IMG/VR virus record: IMGVR_UViG_2563366824_000008
From: a virus
Lineage: Duplodnaviria > Heunggongvirae > Uroviricota > Caudoviricetes
Direction: 5' to 3' (one strand)
Length of the DNA stretch: 41,432 bases
In this document: piece after piece, positions 3,515-35,167 of the stretch
Position numbering within the stretch: the stretch's first letter is position 1
Layout: the number at the start of each line of letters is the position of its first letter
Made by a program: the position numbers and the translations under genes
Notes under the pieces: model-generated
What the model was told of the DNA's origin: nothing
What the model saw: the letters and a program-made list of their open reading frames with translations, nothing else
Database searches by the model: none

Positions 3515-6415
3515 TTAATTAGTTATTTTTCCTTCCAATTCTTCAATCCTCTTTATAATATTTTTCTGACGTATACCTAATGCAGCAATCATTAGATACT
3601 GTAATTCATCATTTCTGAATGCATAGCGTTCTCCTGCTTCATGCGTAATAGTTATAGCCTCACGAACAAGGTTACCTTCATCATCATAAACAGCAGGATC
3701 TGTATCTGCATATGCATCCCATCTGTCATAGCAGATCGCTCCGTATTTAAATGGATCAAGTCCATTCTCTCTGAATATTTCCATTGCCCGTTGCACCGTA
3801 AGTCCGGCATGAAGTCTGGCATCAGCTCCCTTATTTTTTACACTATCAAGCCATTGATAAAAACCAATTTCATCAACAAGAGCTAACCCAACAGCCTGCT
3901 CTTTATCGGAAAGAGTTCTGACTTCCGTTTTCTCTGTTGCATCAGATGTATTTATAGTTGCAGTCCCTGCGTAGACCTGAGAAAAGCGGTTAACGGACCT
4001 TCCAAGTGATACCTGGTTATCAGTTGTTGGCCTTAATGTCGTCGTCGCCCATGTCGATGTAGTATCTTTAGTCGCAGAAAATACTGTTACATTCCCCTGC
4101 TTAAGTCTGACGACACCTCCATCTGTAGAGGCAAGTATCAACTCACCAGCCGCAGATGGACAATCAGCAGCATGGATATCAATATAAGCACCACCTGCAG
4201 TATTCCCATCTTTAGAACGGAACTGCATACCTCGAAAGTTTGAGTCGAATACTGCTTTCGTACTTACCCATGAATTATTGTCATGTCCGTAATCTGTATC
4301 AAACAGGTTAAGGTTATTTCCATAATTCAACTCGAGGGATTTGGTATACTCTCCAATGGCTTCGTCAAATATCGCAATAGTAAATGAACCGTGCTCACGG
4401 TTAAAGGCGATATCAGTTCCAGCATAATATTGATGCGCGGTTCCGGTATACGGATCGGATTCTGCGCCATGCACTGGATGGTTGCCAAGAATATCAGACA
4501 GGTTTGCTACTCCAAACAGATGCTTATTTCTGCGAGTATAATCGCCTGATTTATATGTTGCACCTGAATCCCATTCACCATTTGTCGCTGCAAGCGATGT
4601 TTTTAACCAATAAGACCTGTTTGTCGGAAGATTTCCCTTGTTATCACCAGTAACAGTACTTACCCAATTTTTGCCACGATGACTTACAACATCCCCTGCG
4701 CTTTTCCATACATCCATAGCACCACAGACAAGTTCATCACCTCTTATTGCCAGCCCTTCAGGCTCAAAGCTAACCGGAACTCCGATTTTAGAGTCAGAAC
4801 CATTTAACTGAGTCTCTGTATAAAGTGATGCGGCAAGTGATACAGGAAACGAACGTATTAGCGTACCACCCATATCATAAATCTGGACTGTCCTTACGCA
4901 TCTTGCAGGAACGCCACCCCAAATTGTGTAAATATATCTGCTATCTGATGTAATACCCTGAAGTGTTGCACCATACTGACCTTTACCACGAACAAGTGGA
5001 ACAGGACCATTAATCGGTCTAACTTTCATTGGGCTAGAAGAAGATTCCACTTCTTTGCGATCATATACATATAAAAATCGGCCAGTCCCAGTGTTTGATG
5101 TCGCAATTAATATGACATATCGCCCATCATTAGATACACAAATACTTGCCCGCTGCGCAAGGTTAATCAGATTATTATCACCAGGCTCACCAAATACTCG
5201 GTAATGAGTTATATCTTCAGCAGATGTTGATGCCCCTTTCCATTTTGTCTTTGAATACCCCTTCCCTCCTAGAGAGGAACCAGTCTCAGCAATTGTTGTT
5301 GTAAACAGATATAGTTCACCGTTCTCTATTGTGGCAGAAAGATCTGACCCGTGACCAAGAGGCAATGGCTCTGTAAATGTCACAACAGAAAGAGTTGAAC
5401 CATCGCTTGTATAGTGCCACTCACTGATCCTTGTGAGGGTGTCCGTTCCCCAGTTAGAACCTCCAACCTGTTGAGTGATAAAAACCTTCTCAATACCTTC
5501 ATGCCTTACACAAGCTATTCCCTGCAATGCGTTTTGTGCATTCGCATATATAGTTGGCGCATTGATATCATCACCAAAATTCAGGGTCGCAAGTTTTCTT
5601 TGTCCAATGGAGAAACTTTGCATCGGCGGATTAACGGAAATGCGAACACCATTACTGATTAGAACACCATCACCGGAGAAGCGTGAAATATCTATTTTCG
5701 ATGCATCAACTATATATTCCCCTGCAGGAACATGAACAATTTTAGAGTTTAACTGTGCATTTATAAAAGCATTTGTATCATCATTAATTAAGTCTGCTTT
5801 TGCCCCAAAATCCTTTACGCTATAAACGTCACGCATCTTATCCTGGAACGTTCGGTATACTGCTCCAGAACCATACTGAATAAACCATCCGAAACCACCG
5901 ACAACACCAGCAATTGCAGCATCCACATACTTACGCATTGAGCGATTATTTACAGCATCCTGCTCAAATGATGGATCTGCAAGGTTAGAAATTTTGTTTT
6001 GCTTTGCATCGTAATATTTTGCAAGCAAAGATGGTTTCATCAATGCACGTCTGAACCACCCAAAACATTGCTGGATCAGCATCGTCAGGTAGTCAAAGGC
6101 ATCTTCATGCACTTCGGGGAAAAATTTTCCCTGATTGCGAAGGTCTGTCTCCTGCACTACATCAAGCACACGATCTATCGTAATTCGCCATCCAGCAGCA
6201 AGCGGCGACGGAAGAACCACAGAACCGCCACTATAAGTGCCCGCCCCAGTTACCGTATAACCGGTATCCAGAACCAATTCTGTTACGTTCCCGTTCAGGT
6301 CAGACACCTGAACAACCAGGTCTGATTTTTTGAAAATACGGAAGGTATACGGAAACGATGTCGTAACGCCGTTACCGGTGTATTCGTTGTGGTCAACTTC
6401 GGTTGAGACCGTCAT
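3515..6415 (-). CDS. tailspike/tail fiber with beta-helix depolymerase-like body and C-terminal intramolecular chaperone domain
   Basis: 966 aa; N-terminal virion-attachment region; VKDFGAKADLINDDTNAF pectate-lyase-like beta-helix start; C-terminal segment (TLSDKEQAVGLALVDEIGFYQW...) resembles the self-cleaving S74 chaperone of tailspikes. Confidence 0.8.
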   Translation of the reverse strand: MTVSTEVDHNEYTGNGVTTSFPYTFRIFKKSDLVVQVSDLNGNVTELVLDTGYTVTGAGTYSGGSVVLPSPLAAGWRITIDRVLDVVQETDLRNQGKFFPEVHEDAFDYLTMLIQQCFGWFRRALMKPSLLAKYYDAKQNKISNLADPSFEQDAVNNRSMRKYVDAAIAGVVGGFGWFIQYGSGAVYRTFQDKMRDVYSVKDFGAKADLINDDTNAFINAQLNSKIVHVPAGEYIVDASKIDISRFSGDGVLISNGVRISVNPPMQSFSIGQRKLATLNFGDDINAPTIYANAQNALQGIACVRHEGIEKVFITQQVGGSNWGTDTLTRISEWHYTSDGSTLSVVTFTEPLPLGHGSDLSATIENGELYLFTTTIAETGSSLGGKGYSKTKWKGASTSAEDITHYRVFGEPGDNNLINLAQRASICVSNDGRYVILIATSNTGTGRFLYVYDRKEVESSSSPMKVRPINGPVPLVRGKGQYGATLQGITSDSRYIYTIWGGVPARCVRTVQIYDMGGTLIRSFPVSLAASLYTETQLNGSDSKIGVPVSFEPEGLAIRGDELVCGAMDVWKSAGDVVSHRGKNWVSTVTGDNKGNLPTNRSYWLKTSLAATNGEWDSGATYKSGDYTRRNKHLFGVANLSDILGNHPVHGAESDPYTGTAHQYYAGTDIAFNREHGSFTIAIFDEAIGEYTKSLELNYGNNLNLFDTDYGHDNNSWVSTKAVFDSNFRGMQFRSKDGNTAGGAYIDIHAADCPSAAGELILASTDGGVVRLKQGNVTVFSATKDTTSTWATTTLRPTTDNQVSLGRSVNRFSQVYAGTATINTSDATEKTEVRTLSDKEQAVGLALVDEIGFYQWLDSVKNKGADARLHAGLTVQRAMEIFRENGLDPFKYGAICYDRWDAYADTDPAVYDDEGNLVREAITITHEAGERYAFRNDELQYLMIAALGIRQKNIIKRIEELEGKITN

Positions 6416-6519: not shown

Positions 6520-6534
6520 TTACCTTTCGGGTAA
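6520..6534. promoter_or_regulatory. candidate repressor operator TTACCTTTCGGGTAA
   Basis: Perfect copy of the recurrent TTACCT-N4-GGTAA inverted repeat, 77 nt upstream of the 6611 start. Confidence 0.5.
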
Positions 6535-6571: not shown

Positions 6572-6591
6572 TACTGTATAAATATACAGTT
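6572..6591. promoter_or_regulatory. LexA (SOS) box overlapping a -10-like element
   Basis: TACTGTATAAATATACAGTT matches the CTGT-N8-ACAG LexA consensus with an AT-rich spacer; overlaps TGTATAAAT; 20 nt upstream of the ATG at 6611. Confidence 0.7.
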
Positions 6592-6610: not shown

Positions 6611-6868
6611 ATGCAGCAGTATCACTATCCACTGGAAGACGGATTTACCGAAAGGATTCACACGCCGGGAGGCGTCAGGTCACTGGTGGAGGGATCGCAT
6701 TTGATGAAATTACTCCGGGATCTCGATAAGGATGGATTTAATGTCGATGGCCCACTTGCCGAACTGACTGCACTGATTAACTACGTCACCAGCTCACAGA
6801 TGTCTATGCGGGATCTGCAAACACATCTCGACTATTGTGCCGAACAATTACGAAAACAAACCAGATAA
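6611..6868 (+). CDS. small antirepressor-like protein, paralogous to the C-terminal domain of the adjacent Ant
   Basis: Start taken at the internal ATG 6611 (RBS GGAGAAG) of ORF 6488..6868; 85-aa product aligns by eye with the last ~70 aa of the 7184..7879 protein (shared positions include LM-LL, DG, AELT, RD-QTH-Y). Confidence 0.6.
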   Translation: MQQYHYPLEDGFTERIHTPGGVRSLVEGSHLMKLLRDLDKDGFNVDGPLAELTALINYVTSSQMSMRDLQTHLDYCAEQLRKQTR

Positions 6869-6899
6869 GATTTGAAATTACCAAGAGGAGTGCTTATAT

Positions 6900-6914
6900 T
6901 TACCTTTGCGGTAA
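6900..6914. promoter_or_regulatory. candidate repressor operator TTACCTTTGCGGTAA inside a 12-bp inverted repeat
   Basis: Perfect motif copy lying in the loop between CAAGAGGAGTGC (6883..6894) and GCACTCCTCTTG (6924..6935). Confidence 0.45.
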
Positions 6915-7006
6915 ATTTACATCGCACTCCTCTTGTGCCATAGTAATCGGGCACTGGCAAAATCCAGTGCCGGGATTGGCGTCCCGGATTACTAAAAGGC
7001 GTATTC

Positions 7007-7026
7007 ACCGCGCAAGCGGTTTTTTT
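7007..7026 (+). terminator. rho-independent terminator (GNRA-loop hairpin plus T-run)
   Basis: ACCGC-GCAA-GCGGT followed by TTTTTT; about 140 nt after the 6611..6868 stop. Confidence 0.5.
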
Positions 7027-7183
7027 ATGCGTATAGCACGGCCACATTCGTATTATGGTGGGCTGTGTGGGGGCACCGAAAGGTGCGCCGGGTCCTTTTA
7101 GCCGGTTACGCCAACCCTGCACAGTTCACCACCAACCGATTGGCGTCGGTAGTGGTGATTAACCAGACTAAAAGGTAACCACT

Positions 7184-7879
7184 ATGACAGCTACAAAAAG
7201 CACGTCCATTTTTTCTTTCGAATCCCAAGCCGATATACGAGTAATCGTCATTAATGGTGAGCCATGGTTTATCGCTTCAGATGTTTGTCGGGCTATAGGC
7301 ATAGCAAATCATCGAGATGCTGTTAGAAAACTTGATGATGATGAGAAGGGCGTCGCTTCAACCGACACCCCTGGCGGTGAGCAAGAATCGATCATCATCT
7401 CCGAGTCAGGCCTCTACACACTGATCCTCCGCTGCCGCGACGCAGTGACACCAGGCACTATCCCCTACCGCTTTCGTAAATGGGTTACAGGTGAGGTTCT
7501 TCCTCAGATCCGCCGCACCGGAAGTTACATTAAAAACTCGCTCCCGCAGGAAGAACGCATAAAGATAGTTGCCGACCAGGTAGCCAACGCCACAGCATCA
7601 GCAGTGATGCAGGCAATGAAGATAGAGAACAAAACCTACAGTGCCCCACTGAAGCCCGGCTACCGCAGCCTGATTCACTCGCCGTCGGGTGTTCTCGGCC
7701 TGACGGAGAACTCACTGCTGATGAATCTGCTGAACCAGTTGCAGGACGACGGGCACGACGTATCGGGCGCGGCGGCGGAGCTGACCACCATGTTCTGCTA
7801 CATCGTCGGTGTGAGCAAATGCCTGCGTGATATCCAGACCCACGCGGAGTACATCAACGACAAAGCAGGGTTCTTCTGA
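7184..7879 (+). CDS. ant: antirepressor with BRO-N (KilA-N-like) N-terminal domain
   Basis: 231 aa; N-terminal region (VIVINGEPWFIASDVCRAIG...) matches the BRO-N/antirepressor signature as remembered; RBS AAAAGGTAA; C-terminal domain paralogous to the 6611 product. Confidence 0.75.
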   Translation: MTATKSTSIFSFESQADIRVIVINGEPWFIASDVCRAIGIANHRDAVRKLDDDEKGVASTDTPGGEQESIIISESGLYTLILRCRDAVTPGTIPYRFRKWVTGEVLPQIRRTGSYIKNSLPQEERIKIVADQVANATASAVMQAMKIENKTYSAPLKPGYRSLIHSPSGVLGLTENSLLMNLLNQLQDDGHDVSGAAAELTTMFCYIVGVSKCLRDIQTHAEYINDKAGFF

Positions 7880-7949
7880 CGGCGGCGGCACAGGGATGTG
7901 CCTTTAAATAATTCTGTACGATTGCAGACTGTGGGTGAATAGCGTACTA

Positions 7950-7964
7950 TTACCTCAAGGGTAA
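7950..7964. promoter_or_regulatory. candidate repressor operator TTACCTCAAGGGTAA
   Basis: Perfect motif copy 60 nt upstream of the 8025 start. Confidence 0.45.
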
Positions 7965-8024
7965 ACGGATTGGTTTCATTTTTATTAATCCGTGTAATGA
8001 ACTTATGAGATATGAGGTAATGTC

Positions 8025-8204
8025 ATGCGAAACGAAAAATTGCAGATGCGTAGAGCGCAAGCTGCCGCAAGACGTTCTTTCAATGGAAGCGTAGAGTACG
8101 TAAAAGTTACTATGACAAAAGATCACGCAAGTCGCGTATCCCGCGCTTTCTTTGATTCTCGTAACAATAAGGAAAATTATGAGTTCGTCTGCGTCGCAGA
8201 ATGA
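8025..8204 (+). CDS. small basic protein (candidate antitoxin), not in the ORF track
   Basis: 59-aa ORF translated by hand; RBS GAGGT 6 nt upstream of the ATG; overlaps the next gene by 26 nt in another frame. Confidence 0.4.
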   Translation: MRNEKLQMRRAQAAARRSFNGSVEYVKVTMTKDHASRVSRAFFDSRNNKENYEFVCVAE

Positions 8205-8724
8205 TAAAAATCAAATTGTCAGATATAAGGGTCGAGTATTGCATACGCAAAATTTCTCGGCCCTTTGTGCATCTGATCTTGAGCTGAAGAAAGTATCTGA
8301 TGCCTTTGCCCAGTATTGGAAAACGGGATACCATCCATCTCTTGGTAAAGATGCTGCATTTGCTCGTCCGACAGAAATGCTTAAACTAAATGTCAGGCAT
8401 ACTCATGTCGATAACCAAGACTATATTCCAGAAGATAGTGATAAAAAACACACTGGTAAAAAATCATCTTGGGATGCATGGAAAAATATAGCGTCTGTAC
8501 AAGTAAAATGCATACCAACAAGTGATTGCTTTTTAGTTTATTCGGTAAATCACAATCGTGATGCGCTGGTTATGTTTTTTGTTGACGCAGATGCTCACAA
8601 CATAACTGAGCAAGAAGAGTTTAAAGAGGAAGCAATCACTATCAGTTATCAATTCTTTGAGAAAACAAAAACAGAACCAATGCCTTTAGAAGAAGATCTT
8701 TTTTCTGATAAATGGAAGGAATAG
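8179..8724 (+). CDS. candidate toxin, possibly YafO-like
   Basis: Start taken at ATG 8179 (RBS AAGGAAAA) within ORF 8152..8724; 181 aa; segments DAF-QYWKTG..P.LGKDAAF, HTHVD and CFLVYS resemble my recollection of the YafO ribosome-dependent mRNA interferase family; not verified. Confidence 0.4.
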   Translation: MSSSASQNDKNQIVRYKGRVLHTQNFSALCASDLELKKVSDAFAQYWKTGYHPSLGKDAAFARPTEMLKLNVRHTHVDNQDYIPEDSDKKHTGKKSSWDAWKNIASVQVKCIPTSDCFLVYSVNHNRDALVMFFVDADAHNITEQEEFKEEAITISYQFFEKTKTEPMPLEEDLFSDKWKE

Positions 8725-8816
8725 CCCGCAGCGCAGGCTTTTTTGTGGACGAAACAAAAGTCAGTGCTACACTCATTGACGCCACATTGAGGTGGCTTAT
8801 AGATGGAAATTTCACA

Positions 8817-8978
8817 ATGAAAAAAGCATTTGCTGCACTGTTCGTTTTGTTGTCTCTGGTAGCTTCAACTCAGGCCTTTGCCGGTCGTTGTCAGCACGAC
8901 AGCGATACTGCTGCAGACGGCTCCCGCTGCGGTGGGCGTTCTGCGGATTCCCGCCCGGGCGGCGGTGGCATTCGTTAA
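8817..8978 (+). CDS. small secreted Cys/Gly-rich peptide
   Basis: Internal Met of ORF 8712..8978 begins a classic signal peptide MKKAFAALFVLLSLVASTQAFA; about 31-aa mature part; weak RBS. Confidence 0.4.
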   Translation: MKKAFAALFVLLSLVASTQAFAGRCQHDSDTAADGSRCGGRSADSRPGGGGIR

Positions 8979-8984
8979 AAAAAC

Positions 8985-9000
8985 AAGGCCGCGAAAGCGG
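8985..9000 (+). terminator. GNRA-loop hairpin ending the plus-strand insert
   Basis: GGCCGC-GAAA-GCGGCC perfect hairpin just after the 8978 stop; followed by the GTGACATGTCAC palindrome rather than a T-run. Confidence 0.35.
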
Positions 9001-9003
9001 CCT

Positions 9004-9015
9004 GTGACATGTCAC
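9004..9015. repeat. 12-bp perfect palindrome GTGACATGTCAC, copy 1 of 3
   Basis: Exact 12-mer also at 26499..26510 and 28764..28775; each copy sits just past the stop of a minus-strand gene. Confidence 0.8.
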
Positions 9016-9018
9016 GAC

Positions 9019-9432
9019 TTATAAAGATGACTGATATTTTACAACTCTGTTCATGGCATCTTTTTTCACCGAGCTGATATCAGTTCTTATTTTGGCTTCG
9101 TCATTACTGCTTATCATGCTATTAATTTTTTGCACTGACATGCCGTTTCTTTCAGCCATTGCACATACAGCAGCATCGTATGAAGAACTCGCTGCGATGG
9201 ATATCACCTTGTTACACTCAAACACAGCACCTTCAGCAATATCAGATGCCGATGAGGCTGGCTTGGTATAAGTCTTGACGTAGTGATCAATACAACTATC
9301 CTTCGCCGTCTTGGCAAGAGAAAAATCCATTTTAACTTTGTCGCAATATGCCTTATCAACACCGTCATAAACATCATAGGATGTCGAGCAAGCGGATATC
9401 AAAAATACCGATAACAGCAATAATTCCTTCAT
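9019..9432 (-). CDS. phage lipoprotein of unknown function
   Basis: 137 aa; signal peptide with lipobox LISACS; last gene of the virion operon before the plus-strand insert. Confidence 0.55.
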   Translation of the reverse strand: MKELLLLSVFLISACSTSYDVYDGVDKAYCDKVKMDFSLAKTAKDSCIDHYVKTYTKPASSASDIAEGAVFECNKVISIAASSSYDAAVCAMAERNGMSVQKINSMISSNDEAKIRTDISSVKKDAMNRVVKYQSSL

Positions 9433-31634: not shown

Positions 31635-31982
31635 TCAGAACTCTTCGATGTTCCAGCCGCCACCTGCTTTCTTTGGTTTAACCGTTACCCCGATGATTCG
31701 GAACGGATACTGATCTGCGGCTACTTTGGTTTTCACCCTGGCGTCGTCGGTCCAGAATCCCCCTTTCACTTCGTGCAGTTCCATCTCTCCGGTGGCGAGC
31801 ATCACAGCGAAATCGGGCGTATAGAACGTGTTGTCAGCTAACCGCAGCTTGATACCCTCGAATCGATACCAGGCGATTTCCCCTGCACGTTTACGCTGCT
31901 CAAGGTGCTGGCAATACGCAGATTCTGTTTTGTTCATCTGGCCTGTTTTGAGTCGACCAAGAGCCTGTATCTGTTTTCTCAT
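31635..31982 (-). CDS. phage protein of unknown function, possibly nuclease-like
   Basis: 115 aa; segment FYTPDFAV...ELHEVKGG suggests a PD-(D/E)XK-like fold (DUF1064-like, from memory); operator overlaps its RBS. Confidence 0.45.
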   Translation of the reverse strand: MRKQIQALGRLKTGQMNKTESAYCQHLEQRKRAGEIAWYRFEGIKLRLADNTFYTPDFAVMLATGEMELHEVKGGFWTDDARVKTKVAADQYPFRIIGVTVKPKKAGGGWNIEEF

Positions 31983-31985
31983 GAT

Positions 31986-32062
31986 TTACCTCTAAGGTAA
32001 TTAAAAACCACATAAGACACGAAATCAATAGAGTTTAGAATATTTTGTTACCTTATAGGTAA
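31986..32062. promoter_or_regulatory. two candidate repressor operators between P-like and downstream genes
   Basis: TTACCTCTAAGGTAA (31986..32000) and TTACCTTATAGGTAA (32048..32062). Confidence 0.5.
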
Positions 32063-34448: not shown

Positions 34449-35033
34449 ATGAAAAGTATCCAGGACGTCCGCAGGCAAAATCTCAACGACTTGATCGACC
34501 GTGAATTCAATGGTGTTCAGACGCGGATGGCAGAAAAACTTGGAACTCAGGCAAATCTGGTAAACCGCTGGGCTCTTGGCAAGAAGGTTATCGGCGACCA
34601 GGTTGCGCGAAAAATTGAAGCTGCCGCCAATAAACCCCGTAACTGGCTTGATATCGATCGCTCGCTTTCTCAGGAAGGTTTTCAGCCTGTCGGCCCAAGC
34701 GACATTGGTCAGCTGGCGGCTCACAACCTGGAACGCTGGATGAGCGAAAGCCGCGACCTTTCAACACAGGGAAAACTTCACCGCGCATCCGGCGTCGCCC
34801 AGGTGACAATCAGCCGCCTGTTAAACAATGAGGTCAGCGTTTCCATTTCCACCCTGGAGAATGTTGCATCCGCATTCGGGCGTCACGGCTATGAATTACT
34901 GATTCACCCGCACGACCCTGCGACTATCAACTATGACCGCTCGCGCTACGCATTGTTACCCGAAACAGAGAAGGCAAAGATCGAAAGTTACATTGAATTT
35001 GTCATCAGCCAGAACGAAAAAAACAAACAATAA
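34449..35033 (+). CDS. prophage repressor candidate with two HTH domains and no autocleavage domain
   Basis: 194 aa; two XRE-like HTH segments (QTRMAEKLGTQANLVNRW and HRASGVAQVTISRLLNN); no LexA-like Ala-Gly / Ser-Lys cleavage module seen; followed by its own terminator. Confidence 0.6.
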   Translation: MKSIQDVRRQNLNDLIDREFNGVQTRMAEKLGTQANLVNRWALGKKVIGDQVARKIEAAANKPRNWLDIDRSLSQEGFQPVGPSDIGQLAAHNLERWMSESRDLSTQGKLHRASGVAQVTISRLLNNEVSVSISTLENVASAFGRHGYELLIHPHDPATINYDRSRYALLPETEKAKIESYIEFVISQNEKNKQ

Positions 35034-35090: not shown

Positions 35091-35167
35091 TTACCTTATG
35101 GGTAATTTTTTTAACTCATATCTATTGACATCAAACCAGATACGCATAATCATTACCTCAACGGTAA
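35091..35167 (+). promoter_or_regulatory. rightward early promoter flanked by two operators (oL/pL analogue)
   Basis: TTACCTTATGGGTAA (35091..35105), TTGACA (35125..35130), CATAAT (35145..35150), TTACCTCAACGGTAA (35153..35167). Confidence 0.55.

Follow-up and report, generated by a model that had tools for sequence, protein, structure and literature searches.

We analysed a 41,432-nt stretch of DNA (IMG/VR record IMGVR_UViG_2563366824_000008, referred to in its whole length as the window), which is an Escherichia coli prophage of the phiV10/epsilon15-like type (Uetakevirus). Over positions 7880–9020, it is 99.3% identical to Escherichia phage TL-2011b. The object of this work is a pair of genes lying in that segment: a small gene encoding a basic protein of 59 amino acids (aa), and a larger gene encoding a protein of 181 aa. 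An original prediction made from the sequence alone had compared the pair to a toxin–antitoxin or abortive-infection cassette. Both open reading frames (ORFs) were found exactly at the positions it had given, with the 26-nt overlap it had described, each preceded by a Shine–Dalgarno sequence (Table 1). The pair displays the architecture of a type II toxin–antitoxin system, namely a small and a larger gene that are adjacent, co-oriented, overlapping and strictly co-inherited, and we identify it as a toxin–antitoxin-like pair of the YafO family.

The resemblance of the central region of the large protein to YafO, which the original prediction had proposed, is borne out both at the profile level and at the fold level. 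The protein matches the Pfam model YafO_toxin (PF13957), and not an unrelated family, with a score of 26.3 bits (E = 8.1e-6) that only marginally passes the cut-off of 25; the match covers residues 46–152 and positions 3–92 of the 101 in the profile. Among 69 aligned relatives, 48 match the same model, with a best E-value of 1e-39. When an alignment of the close family was compared by hhalign with an alignment of canonical YafO proteins of 131–135 aa, residues 18–161 of the large protein were matched to residues 3–132 of YafO (probability 99.35%, E = 6.6e-21), and the toxin core is homologous to the whole of YafO. Only profile methods detect this kinship: BLASTP found no similarity between the large protein (181 aa) and E. 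coli K-12 YafO (132 aa). With phmmer and hmmsearch, no match for either protein of the pair was found among PDB sequences, and neither protein matched NCBIfam. In TL-2011b and in E. coli chromosomes, the Prokaryotic Genome Annotation Pipeline (PGAP) already names the large gene "type II toxin-antitoxin system YafO family toxin". The family is small, since a word-index search returned 27 cluster representatives, all from Enterobacterales, and a profile search of 1.84 billion representatives returned only 70 matches at E ≤ 1e-3; no relatives were found in a scan of species-representative genomes.

The conserved residues of the large protein are F43, G56-K57-D58, R63-P64, R73-H74-x-H76, T114-S115-D116, Y121, R127 and A139-H140. 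F43, G56, P64, H76, S115, Y121 and H140 are invariant or at least 90% conserved across 69 sequences including E. coli YafO, which deviates at three columns (P64, S115 and the residue before H140). The motifs held in common with YafO are FxxY(W/K), starting at F43, G(K/R)D, starting at G56, R63-P64, (R)HxH, with H74 and H76, (T)SD, here T114-S115-D116, LVY, ending at Y121, and (A/P)H, here A139-H140. We know of no experiment that has located the catalytic residues in the YafO family.

An AlphaFold2 model computed with 68 sequences reached a predicted local distance difference test score of 91.6 (57 when only 24 close homologues were supplied) and adopts a RelE/HigB-like fold of the RelE/ParE superfamily (BECR fold). 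No significant match was obtained with Foldseek in the PDB or BFVD, the top PDB entry being HigB2 at an E-value of 0.2. In the comparison with BECR-fold toxins of known structure (Vibrio cholerae HigB2, Mycobacterium tuberculosis HigB1, YoeB, YafQ and RelE), sequence identity to the hits ranked 1–11 is 3–17%, and the large protein is about 70 residues longer through an insertion, a C-terminal helix and a tail. Relative to YafO, the N- and C-terminal extensions noted by the original prediction are present, and an internal insertion is to be added to them: about 17 N-terminal residues, which are disordered in the model, about 35 residues (approximately 78–112) that follow the HxH strand and are absent from YafO, and a C-terminal extension (162–181), likewise absent, which consists of a conserved 20-aa tail (MPLEEDLFSDKW). 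As judged from sequence profiles and the predicted fold, the large protein truly belongs to the YafO branch of BECR-fold toxins, as a divergent member of long form. YafO itself is a BECR-fold toxin that cleaves mRNA (PMC11980606); by analogy of family and fold, and from its conserved His, Arg, Tyr and Asp residues, the large protein is most likely an RNase as well.

The small protein is of a different kind from YafN, the antitoxin of YafO. Its isoelectric point is 10.0 (net charge +4.6), as compared with 5.8 for the large protein, 5.5 for YafN and 7.0 for YafO, and it consists of an Arg/Ala-rich N-terminus followed by a conserved core, VKVTMTKEHAxRVSRAFYDSRNDKxNYEFVC. It matches PHROG 6685, a family of unknown function, and 13 cluster representatives were found, from Salmonella, Lelliottia, Hafnia and metagenomes. 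Searched alone or as a profile, it had no match in Pfam, NCBIfam, PADLOC or the PDB, and thus matched no antitoxin family; Pfam and profile searches recognised no DNA-binding domain in it. BLASTP gave no alignment between the small protein and YafN, and the YafN sequence obtained no score against a hidden Markov model of the small protein. The suspicion that the upstream protein is not a YafN- or RelB-like antitoxin was therefore well founded: YafN is an acidic, Phd/YefM-type protein of 97 aa, to which the basic 59-aa partner found here is unrelated and which it does not resemble.

One could suppose that the 59-aa frame is open by chance or serves as a leader, the large gene then being either a YafO toxin without a partner or a remnant that has lost its activity. 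PGAP leaves the small ORF unannotated in E. coli chromosomes of RefSeq, for example in E. coli 13E0780 (L141 2458–2760; the loci that we fetched are designated by L and a number) and in 61 RefSeq genomes, and YafO toxins of Pseudomonas prophages have been reported as orphans (PMC10449497). We consider this explanation very improbable. In all 47 fetched loci whose large protein is at least 44% identical to that of the window, the large gene is immediately preceded by a detectable homologue of the small gene, with an intact frame, a start codon and a Shine–Dalgarno sequence, and a homologous or equivalent small ORF adjoins the large gene upstream in each locus examined. The ratio of nonsynonymous to synonymous substitution rates (dN/dS) is about 0.2 for the small gene and 0.06–0.1 for the large gene, whose product has 36 invariant residues across 24 homologues. 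In the small gene, the fractions of non-consensus nucleotides at codon positions 1, 2 and 3 are 0.148, 0.137 and 0.283, the third position thus being about twice as variable. The conserved homologue, the dN/dS ratio and the codon-phase variation mark the 59-aa ORF as a real gene.

An antisense RNA or ORF within the small gene was considered and found to be unsupported: the way in which codon positions vary agrees with the plus frame, and in L008 the minus frame is interrupted. The minus strand does carry an ORF (7950..8126) and a terminator-like site (8146–8125), and the promoter scan found no minus-strand promoter for such an antisense transcript. We also observed that, in the same locus pairs, the synonymous rate (dS) of the small gene (8025–8177) is 0.25–0.8 and that of the large gene (8206–8721) is 0.7–3, i.e. 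3–5 times lower in the small gene, which may reflect noise from 51 codons, recombination or an additional constraint on the mRNA.

The two proteins diverge in parallel, the identities to the small and large proteins being 54% and 60% in Serratia and 43% and 49% in L008. Homologues of the small gene are detectable by score as far as L045 and L052b, and weakly in L052a and L054. In more distant loci, a basic ORF of 59–84 aa without a Pfam match occupies the equivalent position; for the ORFs that precede the large gene in L003, L053, L055, L056 and L143, homology with the small protein received no statistical support, and we regard them as positional analogues only. In L143, a canonical 131-aa YafO is preceded by a 62-aa basic ORF instead of YafN. 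In L052, a 44%-identical relative, two tandem paralogues of the small gene (71 aa ending in NHEFVL and 55 aa ending in NNEFCCAE; ~1630–2040) lie upstream of the large gene. Because of the strict linkage, the overlap, the parallel divergence and the opposite charge of the two proteins, comparative evidence designates the small protein as an obligate partner of the large one.

The pair occupies a variable slot in an otherwise conserved segment of the prophage. The slot is bounded on the left by a weak terminator hairpin lying directly 3' of a gene for a Bro-N antirepressor, and on the right by the intrinsic terminator that follows the large gene. The left hairpin is kept in prophages AR_0086 and phiv142-3 and in diverged loci, and in diverged loci the right terminator is also kept after the large gene, in the form AAGCCCGC-N4-GCGGGCTTTTTT. 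The promoter and operator described below drive a 210-aa protein of unknown function in AR_0086 (L140 2605–3237) and two tiny ORFs in phiv142-3 (L057 2598–3074), these alternative cargos having no Pfam or PADLOC match, whereas phiV10 lacks the slot altogether. When the window is aligned with AR_0086 and phiv142-3, identity extends up to the GGTAA half-site of the operator and resumes at the terminator stem, which places the left recombination junction at about 7965/7966. As read from these alignments, the cargo is 7966..8722 (0.76 kb, two genes); the promoter, operator and terminator belong to the backbone, because they are common to prophages with other cargo and because the ends of the exchanged segment coincide exactly with the operator and the terminator. 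Among 5,426 complete E. coli genomes, the promoter/operator is present in 174 and the pair in 61. Most relatives of the pair reside in the equivalent slot of epsilon15-like prophages in Escherichia, Serratia and other hosts. The pair was also found in a lambdoid phage, after Q and the lysis genes (L049), and in a siphovirus, between tail genes (L003/L006), and hence occurs in three phage backbones (podovirus, lambdoid and siphovirus).

The original prediction had credited the pair with its own operator-marked promoter near 7950. A promoter and a palindrome do exist there, but they are not the pair's own, the palindrome being an epsilon15-type operator, predicted to be bound by the phage repressor Rep, within the common backbone. 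The promoter is of the sigma-70 type and was read from the sequence, its score being under the 9-of-12 threshold of the promoter scan; a layout of the form TTGnnn-17-TAATAT also precedes the pair in L036, L038, L040, L043, L044, L049 and L008. The operator overlaps the −10 hexamer, and the same arrangement of a −10 hexamer followed by an operator recurs at 6895–6914 and 35147–35167. The window contains 10 exact copies of TTACC-N5-GGTAA, for an expected 0.45, and 13 copies when one mismatch is allowed. Pairs of copies flank the Rep gene (34331/34379 and 35091/35153), another pair precedes the replication genes (31986/32048), and single copies stand at two other promoters of the region of the pair (6520 and 6900). 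At 31986, the GGTAA half-site doubles as the Shine–Dalgarno sequence (GAGGTAAtcATG) of the minus-strand gene 31635..31982.

Seven such palindromes are annotated "protein_bind: repressor, lysogeny" in the RefSeq entry of epsilon15 (NC_004775.2). The epsilon15 site is the same 17-bp palindrome, ATTACC-N5-GGTAAT, and its copies are likewise dispersed, including ahead of the antirepressor region; the difference is that, in the window, one such site would gate accessory cargo of the toxin type, and a literature search found no published description of an epsilon15-type operator in that role. Dispersed operators of this sort presumably have an analogue in the C1/immI system of P1, where, as here, C4/isrK RNAs are found in the antirepressor region. 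The Rep protein of the window, the predicted trans-acting regulator of the operator 7949–7965, contains two helix-turn-helix domains and no peptidase domain, and is 99.5% identical to the repressor of phiV10 and vB_EcoP_ZX5. Repressor function has been shown for the ZX5 protein, at the level of the whole phage, its overexpression abolishing lytic transcription (PMC9782041). Identical palindromes are carried by phages without the pair, so the small protein is not their primary binder. The phage-wide copies, the epsilon15 annotation and the common backbone argue, for the window, against the palindrome near 7950 being a private autoregulatory operator of the pair. The 5' untranslated region is specific to the cargo; a structured leader is not supported, the hairpin 7965–7993 being no better than shuffled sequence (z = −0.77).

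A direct link of the pair to the SOS response, which had been suggested by analogy with yafNO and by a neighbouring LexA-controlled module, found no support. LexA-type boxes (CTGT-N8-ACAG) occur in the window only at 6574, 21498 and 26040, and the scan found none in 7880–8024. The nearest box (6574–6589) lies 1.4 kb upstream of the pair, where it precedes the Ant-like gene; this box and the 86-aa gene that follows it are the LexA-controlled module in question. Any SOS link of the pair would thus be indirect, running from LexA through Ant to Rep. The comparison with the E. coli dinB-yafN-yafO-yafP operon is instructive in this respect. The antitoxin (here its presumed counterpart) likewise comes first and the toxin second, and expression is expected to rise after DNA damage in both cases, but the pair stands in a prophage cargo slot and not in a dinB operon, with an operator of the prophage repressor in place of a LexA box.

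Our preferred reading, to which we give about an even chance, is that the two-gene cargo of this Rep-gated slot consists of a long-form YafO-type RNase and a small partner that neutralises it, and that it is off in the lysogen. By analogy with YafO, the large protein would arrest translation by cleaving mRNA. The small protein, whose translation is probably coupled to that of the overlapping large gene, would neutralise it by direct binding, like a type II antitoxin. Neutralisation is inferred from the gene order, the overlap, the strict co-inheritance and the charge complementarity, and a proteic antidote is the most economical, and most likely, reading of the role of the small protein. In a stable lysogen, Rep bound at the operator over the −10 hexamer would shut the operon off. 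Inactivation of Rep, through DNA damage acting on LexA, Ant and finally Rep, or infection of a naive cell, would switch the operon on along with the antirepressor genes. The pay-off could lie in host takeover, in commitment to induction or in keeping competitors out.

Several points weigh against this reading. An operator at the −10 hexamer does not prove full repression in lysogens. The Pfam score is barely over the cut-off and the Foldseek matches are below significance. The large protein is acidic overall, unlike most ribosome-binding RelE-type toxins, and has extra segments; the small protein, for its part, cannot be assigned to any fold or family and is basic, acidity being the rule among antitoxins. 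Two further points concern relatives of the pair. In the lambdoid phage (L049/L145), the palindrome precedes the pair as the sole copy in 20.6 kb and there is no close Rep homologue, the contig encoding only a 29%-identical helix-turn-helix protein; in sister phages, the pair and the palindrome are both missing. The large protein of L049 is at most 62% identical to any sampled copy from an epsilon15-like context. Either the slot was acquired whole, its donor not being among the phages sampled, or the palindrome has some importance for the pair itself. (L145 13396–13437 corresponds to L049 3735–3776, and the gene order there is Q, lysis genes, pair, glycosyltransferase.) In addition, some variants carry a different palindrome, TGACG-N4-CGTCA, in one copy per locus, 40–115 nt upstream of the small gene. 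Its contexts are siphovirus, lambdoid and, in one case, epsilon15-like, i.e. three unrelated backbones; the window has no copy. For the variants concerned, this palindrome is a candidate private operator and hints at autoregulation.

These last two points speak for a classical self-regulated type II toxin–antitoxin or abortive-infection moron, which would be expressed in the lysogen and autorepressed, the toxin being freed upon stress or phage attack, with stabilisation of the prophage or abortion of infections as the outcome. In a lambdoid phage devoid of any other copy, the palindrome is still found with the pair, and the locus-unique TGACG-N4-CGTCA stands at the promoter of the pair in L003/L006/L007, L043 and L049. 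The toxin–antitoxin-like architecture, the strict co-inheritance and the moron-like movement of the pair between phage backbones are also consistent with this alternative, and prophage toxin–antitoxin modules are often viewed as possible defence systems (PMC9836087, PMC10449497). For the window, we nevertheless find it doubtful. The pair has no operator other than the Rep-type one repeated across the phage, prophages with unrelated cargo have the same promoter, operator and terminator, the palindromes are present in phages without the small protein, and the latter has no recognisable DNA-binding domain. As for the abortive-infection or defence role put forward in the original prediction, it found no support: PADLOC-DB v2 gave no match for either protein at E ≤ 1, and gating by the repressor argues against constitutive expression in the lysogen.

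Another explanation dispenses with the toxin–antidote relationship. The large protein would be an early-function RNase or ribosome-associated factor built on a YafO scaffold and acting on particular transcripts during lytic growth, and the small protein would be its cofactor, a specificity subunit or an RNA-binding subunit. Rep-gated expression in the early or induction phase would suit such a role, as would the acidity of the large protein, its ~35-aa insertion and C-terminal tail absent from YafO, and the basic Arg/Ala-rich N-terminus of the small protein; moreover, the ribosome dependence and specificity of YafO are disputed (PMC8546651). However, an overlapping, small-then-large layout is how antitoxin and toxin genes are usually ordered in the YafO family (PMC11980606), fast parallel divergence, as seen in the small protein, is typical of antitoxin–toxin co-evolution, and the tandem duplication of the small gene in L052 fits a dosage-sensitive antidote. 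We regard this explanation as quite unlikely.

A bolder reading, to which we give a rather low probability, goes one step further. The pair may serve neither addiction nor defence and instead be an effector that the phage deploys upon induction or infection, its YafO-scaffold RNase being turned on only once Rep is inactivated; the Arg-rich partner would found a new family and serve either to time or neutralise the RNase, with no part in DNA binding, or to direct it to RNA, transcriptional control having been outsourced entirely to Rep. A corollary, which we hold with similarly low confidence, is that many "orphan" prophage YafO toxins have a comparable unannotated partner.

Table 1. Features of the pair and of its surroundings (positions in the window unless a locus is named)
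Feature	Position	Strand	Details
Small gene	8025..8204	+	59-aa basic protein; ATG 8025, Shine–Dalgarno GAGGT 8014–8018, stop 8202–8204
Large gene	8179..8724	+	181-aa YafO-family protein, isoelectric point 5.8; ATG 8179, Shine–Dalgarno AAGGA 8169–8173, stop 8722–8724
Promoter, sigma-70 type	7922..7950	+	−35 TTGCAG 7922–7927, 17-nt spacer, −10 TACTAT 7945–7950; read from sequence
Rep operator, epsilon15 type	7949..7965		ATTACCTCAAGGGTAAA; overlaps −10 hexamer (7945–7950)
5' untranslated region	7966..8024	+	Cargo-specific; Shine–Dalgarno GAGGT 8014–8018
Intrinsic terminator	8723..8745	+	AGCCCGC-AGC-GCAGGCT then TTTTTT; stem begins within stop codon of large gene; right edge of slot
Weak terminator hairpin	7887..7908	+	GGCACA-GGGA-TGTGCC then TTTAAAT; inverted repeat; left edge of expression slot
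TTACC-N5-GGTAA copies (13, 10 exact)	2948, 6520, 6900, 7950, 25511, 28653, 28671, 31986, 32048, 34331, 34379, 35091, 35153		
Gene of master repressor Rep	34449..35033	+	194 aa; two helix-turn-helix domains, no peptidase domain; Pfam HTH_3/HTH_26
Tailspike gene	3515..6415	minus	
Ant-like gene	6611..6868		86 aa; LexA box 5' of start
isrK, c4-a1b1 and C4 antisense RNA elements	6938–7136	+	Rfam
Bro-N antirepressor gene	7184..7879		Pfam and PHROG matches
Signal-peptide gene	8817..8978	+	53 aa; 3' of pair
Bidirectional terminator	8986–9003		After 53-aa gene
TGACG-N4-CGTCA in relatives	L003 5779, L006 5714, L007 3837, L043 3759, L049 3735		

The genes surrounding the slot complete the picture. The secreted-peptide gene and the hairpin expected downstream of the pair are both present, as a 53-aa signal-peptide gene and the bidirectional terminator that follows it. 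The 53-aa protein has a Gly/Arg-rich tail, belongs to PHROG 14503 and is kept with any upstream cargo; its gene is preceded by a promoter-like site of its own (TTGACG 8776–8781 / TATAGA 8798–8803). Past the bidirectional terminator, the minus strand carries a lipoprotein-like gene and then the virion structural genes. This convergent gene (9019–9432) encodes 137 aa with a lipoprotein-like signal (…FLISAC); phiV10 and AR_0086 have other small genes in its place, which makes this a second variable position.

Upstream of the slot, the RNA elements recognised by Rfam are c4-a1b1 (6938–6990; 45.1 bits, slightly below the gathering score), isrK (6951–7026; 77.4 bits) and C4 antisense RNA (7051–7136; 77.7 bits). 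Located 5' of these elements is a putatively Rep-gated promoter (TTGAAA 6872 / TATATT 6895–6900, operator 6900–6914), and 3' of them the Bro-N gene; this region looks like the immI-type c4-ant arrangement of P1, here in a podovirus. The 86-aa gene is preceded by a Rep operator (6520–6534) and by a perfect LexA box (CTGTATAAATATACAG, 6574–6589), and its product shares homology both with epsilon15 gp19 and with the Bro-N antirepressor, in the C-terminal domain of the latter (PHROG 450/15539/1760). This gene is probably that of a small, SOS-controlled antirepressor.

The slot also invites comparison with phage morons. Like them, it is a self-contained promoter–terminator unit inserted between conserved phage genes, and its content varies among near-identical prophages. 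The usual view of morons is that they are active while the prophage is repressed; by contrast, the promoter found here is predicted to be repressor-controlled, and the promoter, operator and terminator remain constant while only the coding cargo is swapped.

We found no publication on this pair. What is already known is the name of the large gene, a YafO family toxin according to automated annotation. What is new, as far as sequence comparison can tell, is the unrecognised family to which its partner belongs, and the predicted control by Rep within a swappable slot in place of a private operator or of LexA control. None of these points overturns current ideas. If our reading is true, it adds an unrecognised and unannotated family of partners (antitoxins) to the YafO branch of RelE-type toxins, which is small and poorly understood, and could account for the frequent reports of prophage YafO toxins that lack an antitoxin: the small ORF missing from PGAP annotation may lie behind such "orphan" reports, and the published Pseudomonas prophage toxins may hide similar partners (PMC10449497). 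It would also tie a toxin-type module to the lysis–lysogeny switch, with activity in the induction or infection phase and only an indirect SOS link. Finally, the putatively Rep-gated slot of Uetakevirus prophages, whose other cargos are of unknown function, would be a place in which to find new early effectors of phages.

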